From a virus: DNA of 64,000 nt. Position 1 is the stretch's first letter, and every line of letters starts with the position of its first letter. Positions 35,919-54,550 of the stretch are shown one piece after another. The position numbers and the translations under genes are program-made. The notes beneath the pieces were generated by a model. It was not told where the DNA came from. It did no database searches and saw only the letters and a program-made list of their open reading frames with translations. Location of the stretch: positions 77,324-141,323 of the IMG/VR virus record IMGVR_UViG_3300022924_000016. The stretch is one strand, 5' to 3'.

Positions 35919-35986
35919 TATATTTGTAGAAGAAATGCTGAAAAATCTGTTTTTTAAATCTTTTTCGGCGAAAATTAAATAAAATG
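35919..35986 (+). repeat. Promoter/5'UTR cassette, copy A (copy B at 47936-48004)
   Basis: TATATTTGTAGAAGAAAT...TTTTTAAATCTTTTTCGGCGAAAATTAAATAAAATG. Confidence 0.7.
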
Positions 35987-36126
35987 GAGAAATTAATACT
36001 GAATAATCAACTAATACTAATGCAGATTCAGCTAGATAAAAGTCGAATTGGGGTTAGCTATATATCAGATGAAACCAAGAACAGATTAAAGGATCAAATT
36101 TTAATAAGTAAAAAAGCTTTAGAAAA

Positions 36127-45002: not shown

Positions 45003-46592
45003 ATGGGAAAAAAGAGATATTCACAAGAGCAGATAGACTTCGTAGTAAATCTAGTAGGTAATGGAGATACTGTTACAGGAGCTACTAGAAAAATGTGCGA
45101 GCATTTCGAGATAAAATACGATGAAACTGCGGGCAGAAGATTCCGAGATATTTTACAAAAGAAAGGAGTCACAAGCAATACAGTAACTGTTGAAGACACT
45201 GATGTATTTAAAGAAGCTCAGCAGAAGCAGCATGACTCCACAAAGAAACGGTTTTTAATTTCGTGGGCGCAGTCAGAAACACCTGTACATAAGAGATTTC
45301 TTAAAAATATGGAAGCTTACGCAAATCATATTGATGGAGATATACTTATCTGTGCTGGGCGCTATCGTAACCCATCATCCCTGTCTTCAAGTAAGCAATT
45401 AAAGAAAAAAGAAAAGGATGTTAAAAATACATGGGATGCTTCGATAATACCTTATCTAGATGCTAACAGGCACAATTTACACCCTTTGTTGTGTGTCCTT
45501 TCTAATTTGAAAACGCAACCTACCAGCTCGATGCCTCTGAATGGTTTGAATGGAATTACAGGATTAGAGTCTTGTATAATTGGTCATCCTAGAGTACACA
45601 TGAAGTCTTTGCCTGTTGTAGAGGGGTATCCACATAAGATTTTGATGACAACGGGAGCAGTAACAGTTGAAAATTATACAGATACAGCAGTGGGTGTTAA
45701 GGGAGCTTTCCACCATCAGATAGCTTGTGTTATCGTAGAAATTGATGGTGAGAATTTTCACCTCAGACATATTATAGCAGATAAAAAAGGCGATTTTCAA
45801 GATTTAATGTATTGTGTCACTAATTCTGAAGTCACAGTGTGTAGTAAACCTGTGGAAGCTCTGATATTTGGAGATCTCCACATAGGGGAAACAAATCCTA
45901 TTGCGGAAGAGGTTTCTTTTAAAATGGCGGAATTGTTGAAACCTAAAAAAATTATAATTCACGATGCTGTAAATTCTCACTCTGTAAGTCACCACGAACA
46001 GAAAAATCCATTCCAACTATTAGAGAGAGAAGAAAATGGCAGTTGGTCGTTACAGAGGGAATTAGACGAAGCTGTTTCTTGGTTTAATAAGTATCCTCAG
46101 TACCAATTTGTAACTGTCCGTTCGAACCACTGTGAGCATATAGATGGTTGGGTAAAAAATACAGACTGGAGAAAATCTACAAATAAGAAATTATACTTAA
46201 AATTTGCTAACATTTTGGCAGAAGGATTAGCTCCAAAAGGTATAGTGCCGTATGTATTTTCTACTGAATTGAACAACGTTTATCCGTTAGGTTTAGATGA
46301 GGCATATAATGTAAAAGGTATTGAATTAAGTATCCATTCTCACGTTGGTGTCCATGGTTCGAGATCGAGCCCAACACAACTTAAAAATTTACCAGTGCGT
46401 ACTATAGTCGGCCACAGTCATGTACCAAGTAGAATAGATGGAACAATATCGGTGGGGACTCTGACACATCTAAGAATCTCTTATAACTCTGGAGCATCAG
46501 GGTGGTTAAACTCTAATGCGGTCATTTACCCTAACGGAAGAGTAGCACAACTTAATATCATTAATGGTAGATTTACAACGTTATTAGATTAA
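45003..46592 (+). CDS. T5 A1-like metallophosphoesterase/nuclease with N-terminal HTH-like region
   Basis: KRFLISWAQ.ETPVH..FL..MEAYA, TTGAVT..NY, FGDLH, IHD, SNH, HSH.G..GSR, GHSH, YN.GASGW. Confidence 0.8.
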   Translation: MGKKRYSQEQIDFVVNLVGNGDTVTGATRKMCEHFEIKYDETAGRRFRDILQKKGVTSNTVTVEDTDVFKEAQQKQHDSTKKRFLISWAQSETPVHKRFLKNMEAYANHIDGDILICAGRYRNPSSLSSSKQLKKKEKDVKNTWDASIIPYLDANRHNLHPLLCVLSNLKTQPTSSMPLNGLNGITGLESCIIGHPRVHMKSLPVVEGYPHKILMTTGAVTVENYTDTAVGVKGAFHHQIACVIVEIDGENFHLRHIIADKKGDFQDLMYCVTNSEVTVCSKPVEALIFGDLHIGETNPIAEEVSFKMAELLKPKKIIIHDAVNSHSVSHHEQKNPFQLLEREENGSWSLQRELDEAVSWFNKYPQYQFVTVRSNHCEHIDGWVKNTDWRKSTNKKLYLKFANILAEGLAPKGIVPYVFSTELNNVYPLGLDEAYNVKGIELSIHSHVGVHGSRSSPTQLKNLPVRTIVGHSHVPSRIDGTISVGTLTHLRISYNSGASGWLNSNAVIYPNGRVAQLNIINGRFTTLLD

Positions 46593-46642
46593 TATAAAAT
46601 TTACACATTTTGTAAACCAATTATAGTTTCGTATTTTTTTTT

Positions 46643-46740
46643 TCAGATTCTTACTGGCATATTTATCTGATATAAACGAATTATTTATTGAGAGACTCTT
46701 TTCATTAACTGTGCCAGCGGTTTTTGATTGGGGTTTTCTT
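46643..46740 (+). ncRNA. Putative kissing-loop cis-regulatory leader RNA (copy 2)
   Basis: Loop CTGGCA (46654-46659) is complementary to loop TGCCAG (46712-46717). Confidence 0.55.
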
Positions 46741-46757
46741 GTTTTTAAGCCGAAGTA

Positions 46758-47864
46758 ATGGAGCATTCAGAGTTTTTAAAAAGATTAGAAAAAAATGAAC
46801 ACTTTGTAAGTGGGTATTTTAAAGTTATAAGTAAATATCAATGTGATAAATGTAAAGTACTGGTTGAAACACCTTATGGGGTTTGTGCATGTGATCCTAG
46901 AAATTTATATGAGCATAATACAAGACCCACAATTATGACAGCGGTTGATAAAAATAGTTACTATTCAAATTATATTAAAGAACACAATGAAAACTATAAA
47001 AATAATAACTTTGAAATTGTTTCAGACTTCATAGGTTTTAATAAGGAGATATTTGTTAAAACAGAATATGGAGTTCATAAAACAACTGCCAATAGCTTAA
47101 AACGAGGAGAGATGCCTGGAATAAACAGTGCTGTTAATAAGGTAGATTATGTTCATAACCAATTAATTGAAACAAACGAATATTACAGAAAAGGACTATT
47201 TAAAGTAATAAGTTATAAAAGAGGAAAAGTCACTTTAGAAGACAGTTTTGGGTTGTGTACTATGTTATTAAATGATTTGGTTAACAACTGTCAACCCACT
47301 ATTTTAAGTGCTGTGGACAAGACAGATTATATTAAAAATAAATTTAAGGATTTAATACACTATGGTAATTATGACTATTCTAAATTTGTATATGATTGTG
47401 CTAGATGTAAATCTATAATAATCTGTAGAGAACATGGTGAATTTTATCAAACCCCCTCAAAACATTTAGGTAACCAAGGGTGTCCTAAATGTGGTAGTAT
47501 AAGAACTGGAAAATATATGCTTGAAAACCCAAATGGTTGGAATTATACGAATTGGCAAAATGCAGGAGATAGAAGTGATAATTTTGACTCATTTAAAGTA
47601 TACATAATCAGGTGTTGGAATGAGCAGGAGGAGTTTTATAAGATAGGAAAGACTTTTGTAACTGTAGAAAGTAGATTTAGGTTAAAACTATTGATGCCGT
47701 ATAATTATGAAATTATTGAACAGTTTATTTTTAATAGCTCAAAAGAAGCATCCAGGTATGAGTTACACTTACAAAAATTGAATAAAAAGTCTACCTATAA
47801 ACCTTTTATTTTATTTAATGGGTCAAATGAATGCTTTAATAAATATTCTTTAACAGTCCTATAG
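46758..47864 (+). CDS. Free-standing GIY-YIG-like (T5orf172/MUG113-type) endonuclease with repeats and Zn-binding motif
   Basis: Three N-terminal repeats ending SAV.K.DY; CREHGEF.Q.P..HL...GCPKC; VYIIRC...FYKIGKT...RF...E..L...F.G.NECF. Confidence 0.7.
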   Translation: MEHSEFLKRLEKNEHFVSGYFKVISKYQCDKCKVLVETPYGVCACDPRNLYEHNTRPTIMTAVDKNSYYSNYIKEHNENYKNNNFEIVSDFIGFNKEIFVKTEYGVHKTTANSLKRGEMPGINSAVNKVDYVHNQLIETNEYYRKGLFKVISYKRGKVTLEDSFGLCTMLLNDLVNNCQPTILSAVDKTDYIKNKFKDLIHYGNYDYSKFVYDCARCKSIIICREHGEFYQTPSKHLGNQGCPKCGSIRTGKYMLENPNGWNYTNWQNAGDRSDNFDSFKVYIIRCWNEQEEFYKIGKTFVTVESRFRLKLLMPYNYEIIEQFIFNSSKEASRYELHLQKLNKKSTYKPFILFNGSNECFNKYSLTVL

Positions 47865-47935
47865 GTACAACTGATACCTCATACTATCAAACCTAATCTT
47901 TTGTTAAATAAAATTTGCAGTTAAAACTAATTGTA

Positions 47936-48004
47936 TATCTTTGTAGAAGAAATCAGGAAAATGATTATTTTTAAGTCTTTTTCCGCCGAAAATTAAATAA
48001 AATG
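47936..48004 (+). repeat. Promoter/5'UTR cassette, copy B
   Basis: TATCTTTGTAGAAGAAAT...TTTTTAAGTCTTTTTCCGCCGAAAATTAAATAAAATG; TTTG at 47914-47917. Confidence 0.7.
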
Positions 48005-48421
48005 ACACTAAATGTAAAAACACTCGCTCAAGAACTTGAAGATTTTCGCAATCCAGAAGAAGGTAAAGCAGTCTTGAAAGAGTGGGGAGAAAAGCTAATT
48101 AGAGAGCATGCTCACAAAAACCGCTGGCAAGAAAAGACTGCCAAACTTCTAGAGTCAAAAACAGATGAAGAATTGGACTCGCTTTACGCTAAGTATTTAA
48201 AACATGCACAAAAAAGAAGTGATATTCTTTATGAGCAAAATATTGATGGAGAGAGTAGTCTAAACGCAATAATTCTAGAAGCTTTTTCAAAGGCAGGTAA
48301 AGTTTCCAAAAAGAAAAAAGATTACGGCATGTTCACTTCTATTGTTTATCGTTATAGGGGATTTAAAGCTGAGTTAATTTGTGGTCAAGGCTGTTTTATA
48401 TCAATTGATAAAATTAAATAA
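48002..48421 (+). CDS. Hypothetical protein
   Basis: ORF ending in GQGCFISI. Confidence 0.6.
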   Translation: MTLNVKTLAQELEDFRNPEEGKAVLKEWGEKLIREHAHKNRWQEKTAKLLESKTDEELDSLYAKYLKHAQKRSDILYEQNIDGESSLNAIILEAFSKAGKVSKKKKDYGMFTSIVYRYRGFKAELICGQGCFISIDKIK

Positions 48422-48727
48422 TTATGGATATATTAGCATTTATGACACCATTTTTTAAGAGTAAGCAAGATGTAATGGCTGAAAAGAAAAGAGAATTATT
48501 TAAAGCTTACAAGTGGATTAGAGAAAACAACAATACTATATCAGATGAAATTTTAGATTTGATGTATAATTCAGCGAAAGAAAAGATTGAGACAAACCCT
48601 GAAATGTTTAAATTATGAAAAATAAATCATATTGGTATTATTTGAAACAACAGATTAAGAAAGATAGCACTGAATTATTAATTGTAGTAGGTTCAGTTAT
48701 TGTAGGTATAATTTTAGTCAATTTAAT

Positions 48728-48967
48728 ATGAAAAAACTGTTTTTATTTTTAATTCTTTTTTGCGCGATTTCGTGCTCATTCAAAGAACCAAAACCAATAG
48801 AGAGGTATCAAGACAAAGGGTTTGTGCTTATTGAAGAGCCTATGAAATGGAACGGCTCTAAATTATTTTTAAAACTTAAGAATGCAGATACTATTATTGA
48901 AGTAGCTGTCCCACCATTCGATGCTTTAAATCTAAAAATAGGCGACACATTAAAATCAAAATTATGA
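48728..48967 (+). CDS. Putative lipoprotein
   Basis: MKKLFLFLILFCAIS/C lipobox-like signal. Confidence 0.55.
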   Translation: MKKLFLFLILFCAISCSFKEPKPIERYQDKGFVLIEEPMKWNGSKLFLKLKNADTIIEVAVPPFDALNLKIGDTLKSKL

Positions 48968-49356
48968 GAGAAGAAATTATAAGTTTCGAGACGGCTAAAG
49001 TAGCTAAGGAAAAAGGATTTGGGTGGTTTATTGGAGATAATAGAGATGTCTATTTTTGGGGAGAGCTACATAAAAGGGAAGACGTTGATTGGAATATAAC
49101 GCACCCTGATTTTCAAGATAGATTTGTCCCTGCCCCAACACAATCGCTCTTACAACGTTGGCTTAGAGAAGTACATAATATTATAGTTGATGTTATATAT
49201 GATGAGAACTCTGAAGACCAGTTTGAATATCTTTTATCAATCTATAAAGATAAACTAGATATTATAAATTCCGAACATGAACTTTATGAGATGTTTTGGG
49301 ATAATTACGAAGAGGCTTTGGAAGAAGGGTTACAAAAAGCTTTAGAACTAATATGA
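48964..49356 (+). CDS. Conserved Bacteroidota-phage hypothetical protein
   Basis: ISFETAK.AKEKGF...APTQSLLQRWLRE.H...YEEALE.GL..AL.LI. Confidence 0.7.
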   Translation: MREEIISFETAKVAKEKGFGWFIGDNRDVYFWGELHKREDVDWNITHPDFQDRFVPAPTQSLLQRWLREVHNIIVDVIYDENSEDQFEYLLSIYKDKLDIINSEHELYEMFWDNYEEALEEGLQKALELI

Positions 49357-54234: not shown

Positions 54235-54266
54235 ATTCCCCATTCAGAAATGTTTGGGGATTTTTT
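54235..54266 (+). terminator. Intrinsic terminator
   Basis: ATTCCCCA...TGGGGATTTTTT. Confidence 0.7.
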
Positions 54267-54341
54267 ATTTTAACAATATTTTAAGTTTTTAATACCGAAT
54301 TTATTGTTATCTTTGACTATTAATAATTTAAAAAGTAAAAT

Positions 54342-54506: not shown

Positions 54507-54519
54507 TAAATTAACACAT

Positions 54520-54550
54520 TTTGTTTTTAAGATATTAGTCTTTATATTTG
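54520..54550 (+). promoter_or_regulatory. Bacteroidota sigma-70 promoter
   Basis: TTTG 54520-54523, 19-nt spacer, TATATTTG 54543-54550. Confidence 0.7.

Follow-up and report, generated by a model that had tools for sequence, protein, structure and literature searches.

The final part of a 141-kb uncultured virus record (IMG/VR IMGVR_UViG_3300022924_000016; G000 below), a 64-kb stretch of DNA referred to here as the window, holds a 165-nt spacer between a gene for A1-like DNA transfer and the gene for a 368-residue homing endonuclease. Within this spacer lies a 5' leader of about 114 nt, which belongs to a self-contained mobile homing-endonuclease cassette and folds into two hairpins, P1 and P2, with complementary letters at their tips (Table 1). 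The closest cultured relatives of G000 are Cellulophaga phages, and distant ones only; it is a Flavobacterium-type phage. The orthologous endonuclease cassette is present in a sister phage, G001 (144 kb, 98% complete).

Table 1. The endonuclease cassette, its leader and the gene upstream; positions count from the first letter of the window.
Feature	Positions	Strand	Evidence
A1-like DNA-transfer gene	45003-46592	+	phrog_1745, 3e-128
Mobile cassette: promoter, leader and endonuclease gene	46593-47864	+	identity steps against G001
-33 element TTTG of a Bacteroidota-type promoter	46609-46612	+	read from the letters; 19 nt upstream of the -7 box
-7 box TATTTTTT; consensus TAnnTTTG, final G gone	46632-46639	+	G001 orthologue is TATTTTTG
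T10 homopolymer from loss of the G (T5-G-T5 in G001)	46634-46643	+	letters and alignment with G001
P1, small hairpin, 6 bp, 16-nt loop	46643-46670	+	folding, -4.3 kcal/mol
Putative kissing arm 1, CUGGCA, in the P1 loop	46654-46659	+	mean unpaired probability 0.85; exact complement of 46712-46717
P2, long terminator-like hairpin, rich in G.U and A-U	46690-46740	+	folding, -18.5 kcal/mol, z -4.29
Inner P2 stem-loop, AACUG-UGCCAG-CGGUU, into a U5 tract	46707-46725	+	fold of 46700-46730: -8.4 kcal/mol, z -3.06
Putative kissing arm 2, UGCCAG, P2 apical loop	46712-46717	+	loop-loop duplex about -8.4 kcal/mol; unpaired probability 0.67
U-rich tail (GUUUUUAAGCCGAAGUA) and translation start region	46741-46757	+	read from the letters; similar tails 3' of P2 in the paralogue and other leaders
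Free-standing homing endonuclease, 368 aa; presumed N-terminal zinc-finger/DNA-binding repeats, probable C-terminal GIY-YIG-superfamily (T5orf172-like) domain	46758-47864	+	phrog_681, 1e-23

Between G001 and the window, the A1-like gene is 73.8% identical; identity climbs to 93.4% across the leader and 94.9% across the endonuclease gene and drops to 77.5% in the spacer past the stop codon. Because this rise and fall bracket the promoter, the leader and the open reading frame (ORF), the three form a single mobile cassette that was exchanged recently as one unit. The position after the A1-like gene is an insertion hotspot, as a different homing endonuclease occupies it in each of two relatives whose A1-like genes are about 50% identical. 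An HNH gene (phrog_59) lies just past the A1-like gene at L006:5575-6111, and a GIY-YIG gene (phrog_314) unrelated to the window endonuclease lies just past it at L007:2290-3051. The phage phiST has no endonuclease at the site; past its A1-like gene comes a plain terminator and then a promoter, the reverse of the order in the window.

Promoters of G000 follow the Bacteroidota pattern of TTTG, about 19 nt and TAnnTTTG, and the ACACATTTTG + 19 nt + TATATTTG arrangement seen ahead of the leader recurs at about 54515-54550. An earlier annotation made from the letters of this DNA, here called the sequence-only reading, had judged the TTTG at 46609 to be well placed and the -7 box, caught in a T run, to mark a promoter that was either degraded or miscalled. 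Both judgments hold up. The spacing is as expected, and in G001 the box is a perfect match followed by TTTTT, whereas the window lacks only the consensus G. This loss may be a real mutation or an assembly error in the homopolymer. In flavobacteria, the consensus -7 box lies at -12 to -5 (PMC9723704), and transcription is therefore predicted to start at about C46644, which would make P1 the extreme 5' end of the RNA. A match to an E. coli-type sigma-70 promoter (TTTACA, 16 nt, TATAGT; 10/12) at 46600-46627 overlaps the Bacteroidota-type promoter. G001 has the two hexamers as well, and the match probably has no bearing in a Bacteroidota host.

The P1 stem pairs UCAGAU (46643-46648) with AUCUGA (46665-46670). 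P2 is built, from its base upward, of GAGAGA/UUUCUU, CUCU/GGGG past a bulged U at 46734, 2x2 U-U internal loops around UCA/UGA, and AACUG(U)/(G)CGGUU, and none of 200 shuffles was as stable. U5 tracts follow the inner stem (46721-46725) and the outer stem (46742-46746), and the AUG at 46758 stands 17 nt past the strong stem. The letters at the two tips, CUGGCA and UGCCAG, are exact Watson-Crick complements with 4 of 6 positions G/C in a leader of 32% GC, and both arms are largely unpaired in the folding ensemble. Their pairing could be extended to 8 through U46660.G46711 and A46661-U46710. This layout agrees with that drawn in the sequence-only reading, which had P1 at 46643-46670 presenting CTGGCA, P2 at about 46691-46739 with the exact complement TGCCAG as its loop, and then a U-rich tail and the ATG; folding extends P2 to 46690-46740. 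Three substitutions separate P2 from its counterpart in G001 (46694, 46730 and 46732), all of them from G.U to A-U, and these changes may be taken as weak support for P2.

The same architecture recurs with other letters in the loops. Both loops are unchanged in the G001 orthologue, and a paralogous leader, G001:92699(-), which precedes a 30%-identical endonuclease, has the pair UGGCGG/CCGCCA at the same arm positions. It has the 5' end UUUUUyAGAUU.CUU and the 3' end GGUUUUCUyGUUUUU..AAGCC in common with the window leader and keeps P2 with a different interior. A strict promoter scan of G000 returned nine promoters, six with leaders of 16-58 nt and three with leaders of 128-147 nt; the median leader length in flavobacteria is 24 nt (PMC9723704). 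The three long leaders precede primase-like, LAGLIDADG and HNH genes and fold as P1 plus P2 with a U-run. Their tips are complementary over 7-9 nt, against 6 in the window leader, and the letters all differ: GGAAAGG/CCUUUCC in the primase-like leader, GGGCAAG/CUUGCCC in the LAGLIDADG leader (two 7-nt loops that are exact complements) and GUAUCUCAC/GUGAGAUAC in the HNH leader. The orthologue of the primase leader in G001 has GUAGCACU/AGUGCUAC instead. Two homologues of the endonuclease on metagenome contigs, L012 (42% identity) and L019 (32% identity), are preceded by the same layout with GUCACGG/CCGUGAC and GGUCAAG/CUUGACC, respectively, and in the unrelated GIY-YIG cassette of L007 a hairpin tip, UUCGUAG, complements an upstream CUACGAA.

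The claim of a kissing-loop leader in the sequence-only reading is supported by comparison. It would have failed had homologous leaders lacked complementarity, and complementary loops were found in the orthologue, the paralogue, L012 and L019 alike. The same reading had called the leader 'copy 2'. This is apt for the architecture but not for the letters, since no second sequence copy turned up, either by BLAST within the window or when all 141 kb of the genome were searched. The comparisons place the window leader in a family of promoter-proximal kissing-loop leaders that accompany mobile nuclease cassettes in Bacteroidota phages, and also a few other genes. A pattern search for the family returned only the two G001 leaders and a chance match in a coding region of the unrelated contig L047, and a literature search found no description of such leaders. 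Rfam gave no match: a permissive cmscan of 46550-46800 produced one chance hit (E 2.7) and a gathering-threshold scan of the whole window produced none. A group I intron or a known RNA family was considered and rejected on this Rfam result and because the upstream A1-like gene is full length and uninterrupted.

Some other leaders of these phages look different. At G001:59015-59151 (+), a 133-nt leader that follows a strict promoter forms a single large branched hairpin with UUUUUCGCGGAAAAUUAAUAAC at its end; it has no obvious loop-loop pair and may be a different leader type. Two short, mutually homologous leaders in the window, at 35930-35988 and 47945-48006, have a -7 box, TAGAAGAAAT... and TTTTTAA.TCTTTTTC.GCGAAAATTAAATAAAATG. 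They lack the hairpins of the kissing-loop leaders and have a ...TTTTTAAG...CCGAA...ATG tail in common with them, which may represent a phage-specific translation-start context.

We propose, with a probability of roughly 0.55, that the leader is a leaky attenuator that throttles expression of the nuclease. A host-type promoter (-33 TTTG, -7 TAnnTTTG, with the last G of the -7 box lost in the window) would start the RNA at about 46644, so that the 5'-terminal P1 forms first and displays CUGGCA in its loop. The long, weakly paired P2 would form next, with UGCCAG at its tip, and the two tips could then physically kiss through 6 bp, 4 of them G-C, locking the leader into one compact fold. P2 lies between promoter and gene, leads into U-tracts and stops 17 nt short of the AUG, and in this it resembles an intrinsic terminator. 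It is also similar to the gene-end terminators of the phage, which have short stems, large loops and a run of T5-6. Most transcripts, whether begun at the cassette promoter or read through from the A1-like gene, would stop or stall at P2, and the effect would be a downward one, with only a trickle of nuclease mRNA being made. Loop letters private to each cassette would prevent cross-pairing of different leaders in one cell. The idea that P2 is a displaced terminator of the A1-like gene was rejected, given that the promoter lies upstream of P2, that the whole leader belongs to the high-identity cassette and that phiST has its terminator before its promoter.

Several observations weigh against this proposal. 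The window copy is the weakest of the family: its loops pair over 6 bp, its P1 and inner P2 stem are weak, and its promoter is damaged. P1 has a z of -1.76, with 12 of 200 shuffles folding equally well, and one or two of its base pairs could be lost, according to where transcription truly starts. At minimum energy, the tip of P2 is a GCCA tetraloop closed by U.G, and the UGCCAG hexaloop needs this U.G to open. The inner stem of P2 contains no more than 2 G-C pairs, and a consensus terminator scan calls neither this P2 nor that of any other leader, a scan that is uninformative here as it also misses large-loop terminators of the phage such as the clear one at about 54240-54268. A nested alternative helix, CUGGCAUA/UGUGCCAG, lies only about 3 kcal/mol above the minimum-energy fold. 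Covariation specific to the window leader is absent, the orthologue loops being identical, and comes instead from the paralogue and the analogous leaders. No such leader was found ahead of about 15 of the 17 more distant endonuclease homologues checked. Finally, a loose genome-wide scan for two hairpins with a match of at least 6 nt found about 99 arrangements in the real genome compared with about 61 in shuffled genomes, with a detector that missed some true members and is too noisy to define the family.

Chance must be considered in light of this last count. A 6-nt match is by itself barely above chance and is convincing only with context and comparative evidence, and one could suppose that the match is coincidental, that P2 only insulates the endonuclease from the A1-like gene, as a hairpin or terminator lying between them, and that P1 is not real. 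The frequency of such arrangements in shuffled genomes would fit this explanation, as would a P1 hardly more stable than its shuffles and loops that are invariant in the sole orthologue. When only the loops of minimum-energy folds were compared, 2 of 200 dinucleotide shuffles of the leader reached a 6-nt loop-loop match. The related leaders speak more directly. The P2 tips of nine leaders were matched with the upstream regions of all nine (a 9 x 9 test), and the cognate region was best in every column, with matches of 9, 8, 9, 6, 6, 9, 8, 7 and 7 nt against a non-cognate mean of 3.96 and maximum of 6. The window tip matches its own upstream region over 6 nt and the eight others over at most 4. 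Three of the nine leaders had been chosen after their match was seen; for the six chosen by promoter and leader length only, the cognate came first in all 6. The 25 canonical terminator hairpins of both genomes have no G/C-containing upstream partner (mean 4.8 nt), the HNH-leader P2 being the exception. Plain coincidence is unlikely in view of the paralogue, whose arms occupy the same positions and complement each other in different letters, and of the cognate test. With the promoter lying upstream of P2, and with a terminator preceding the promoter in the endonuclease-free phiST, we regard this explanation as very improbable.

A real structure could still serve another purpose than termination. 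The leader may control translation or RNA stability, an explanation that we hold to be unlikely yet worth serious attention. P1 would protect the 5' end, as a cap, from 5'-end-dependent RNases, the P2 domain borders on the start region, and kissing would compact the leader so that ribosome loading is slowed or timed. Bacteroidota do not use Shine-Dalgarno sites, and loading in this phylum depends on an unstructured, A/U-rich leader. In agreement with such a role, P1 starts 0-10 nt from the predicted start in most copies (the two primase leaders carry the arm further in), and if weak outer pairs are counted, 4-13 nt separate the P2 domain from the AUG in all members. U-runs with a ...UUUUUAAG...CCGAAAAU...AUG tail also occur in the short unstructured leaders (35950-35988 and 47968-48006), which means that the U-run is not necessarily a terminator tract. 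T4 homing endonucleases, moreover, are mostly under translational control by hairpins (PMC2988022). Sequestration of the ribosome-binding site or start codon, as in T4, is not what the window leader displays: the strong P2 stem stops at 46740, with 17 nt between it and the AUG, and leaves the start codon uncovered. The HNH leader also argues for termination, as its inner P2 hairpin satisfies strict terminator criteria and shares both stem and tail with a plain terminator hairpin at another place in G001.

The attenuator that we favor could, in principle, be conditional. A phage or host factor, or a ligand, might stabilize or disrupt the kiss and so decide termination at P2, turning the nuclease on at a certain time or in a certain state, in the manner of the guanidine-IV riboswitch or the cobalamin L5-L13 contact. 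Gating of terminators or ribosome sites by kissing loops is established (PMC11611296; PMC10907184), and in the window the loop pairing can reach 2 bp into the inner P2 stem, with the nested fold close in energy. Such a switch nevertheless seems improbable. The copies have no conserved unpaired nucleotides and hence no shared ligand pocket, a third hairpin in competition with P2 is absent, and Rfam recognizes nothing. The nested long-range helix, considered in place of the kiss, is 6-15 kcal/mol worse in the other members and was rejected for the family; it is plausible only in the window copy.

A more elaborate role for the loop pair, as a private and fast-evolving address of the cassette, appears quite unlikely. 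Terminated leaders, or a Rop-like protein that recognizes kissing geometry, would then act on nascent copies from the same cassette; Rop itself reads the geometry of a kissing complex. If this were true, the nuclease would sense the dosage of its own gene, or else the stage reached in infection or co-infection, and the leaders would be orthogonal, programmable RNA attenuators on selfish genes, akin to plasmid countertranscript control inside a phage homing cassette.

Protection of a carrier phage from homing endonucleases is known mainly from T4-type phages of Proteobacteria, via hairpins that hide the Shine-Dalgarno site. T4-type phages damp their homing endonucleases by RNA hairpins and by 5' terminators of mobE and segF, at which about 30% of transcripts stop (PMC2988022). 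Regulatory structures of T-even phages include the hairpins of I-TevI/II/III, segB and Aeh1 mobE and the seg43(25) hairpin, which lies ahead of the ribosome site (PMC2988022). As in the window, T-even homing endonucleases have their own promoter and a stable 5' RNA structure or terminator that is thought to limit the nuclease and is mobile with the gene. The T4 cases differ in being single Shine-Dalgarno-hiding hairpins or plain terminators inside an ORF, with no loop-loop contact, whereas the window leader has a P2 that ends 17 nt before the AUG, two tips that would pair through cassette-private letters and a host phylum that is without Shine-Dalgarno sites.

Closer parallels to the loop-loop contact come from riboswitches. 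In the guanidine-IV (mepA motif) riboswitch, two hairpins of a 5' leader kiss and are coupled to an intrinsic terminator before the gene, much as we propose here (PMC11611296). That riboswitch has conserved ligand-binding loops, and its kissing hairpin competes with a separate terminator, whereas the letters of the phage leaders differ from copy to copy, no conserved pocket is present, P2 itself is terminator-like and the Rfam model does not match. The L5-L13 helix of the cobalamin riboswitch, with 5-7 bp, likewise connects a hairpin lying upstream with the regulatory hairpin in the expression platform (PMC10907184). The window leader has no cobalamin aptamer, its 5' partner is plain and small, and its pairing is perfect Watson-Crick, in contrast to the bulged and ligand-dependent pairing of the cobalamin case. 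In the TAR-TAR* and ColE1 RNA I/RNA II kissing complexes, all 6-7 loop nucleotides are paired. Full loop pairing of this kind is what the UGCCAG hexaloop requires, but those complexes form in trans and the leader would form its contact in cis.

The protein encoded by the cassette is reasonably described as GIY-YIG-like, with moderate support for this label of the sequence-only reading. The C-terminal 100 residues contain the conserved motif VYIIRC..EEFYKIGKT..R..E..ECF, with Y282, Y294, G297, R306, E335 and E358 invariant, and 7 of 14 homologues match Pfam T5orf172 and 4 of 14 match MUG113. The window protein itself matches neither family, and residues 271-368 of its predicted model (pLDDT 76) resemble the GIY-YIG domains HIGLE, UvrC-N, Slx1, I-TevI and EndoII weakly (Z 3.0-4.9). 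Searches with the whole protein by Foldseek and by sequence against the PDB returned nothing usable. The N-terminal half is presumably the DNA-binding part. The region 46758-47400 encodes, at residues ~20-215, three repeats of ~50 residues (...V.T.YG......L......P.I.SAVDK..Y...) and then CxxC zinc-ribbon modules, and homologues of the endonuclease match DUF723 and the treble-clef DUF4379.

Downstream of the endonuclease, gene content differs between the window (47865-48970) and G001 (~76600-78060) as far as the phrog_12005 gene. ORF 48002-48421 is found in the window only, and G001 has other small ORFs there, in a variable region adjoining the cassette. This ORF contains, 1.4 kb downstream of the leader at 48115-48129, a perfect inverted copy of the 15-mer TGCCAGCGGTTTTTG (46712-46726), which comprises the P2 tip, its 3' arm and the U-run (BLAST E 0.02). 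On the minus strand, the copy is part of a terminator-like hairpin (48144-48124); plus-strand RNA of the copy would give a second CUGGCA-containing partner for P2.

Overall, the proposed device differs from those of T4 in that a promoter-proximal, terminator-like hairpin would be clamped to a 5' hairpin through a helix whose letters are specific to the cassette. The G001 and window phages provide a natural experiment on one cassette, with the -7 box intact in the former and damaged in the latter. If confirmed, the leaders would constitute an uncatalogued family of cis-regulatory RNAs that moves with mobile nuclease genes. They would also offer a natural set of mutually orthogonal kissing pairs and a compact, portable part for throttling expression in Bacteroidota.

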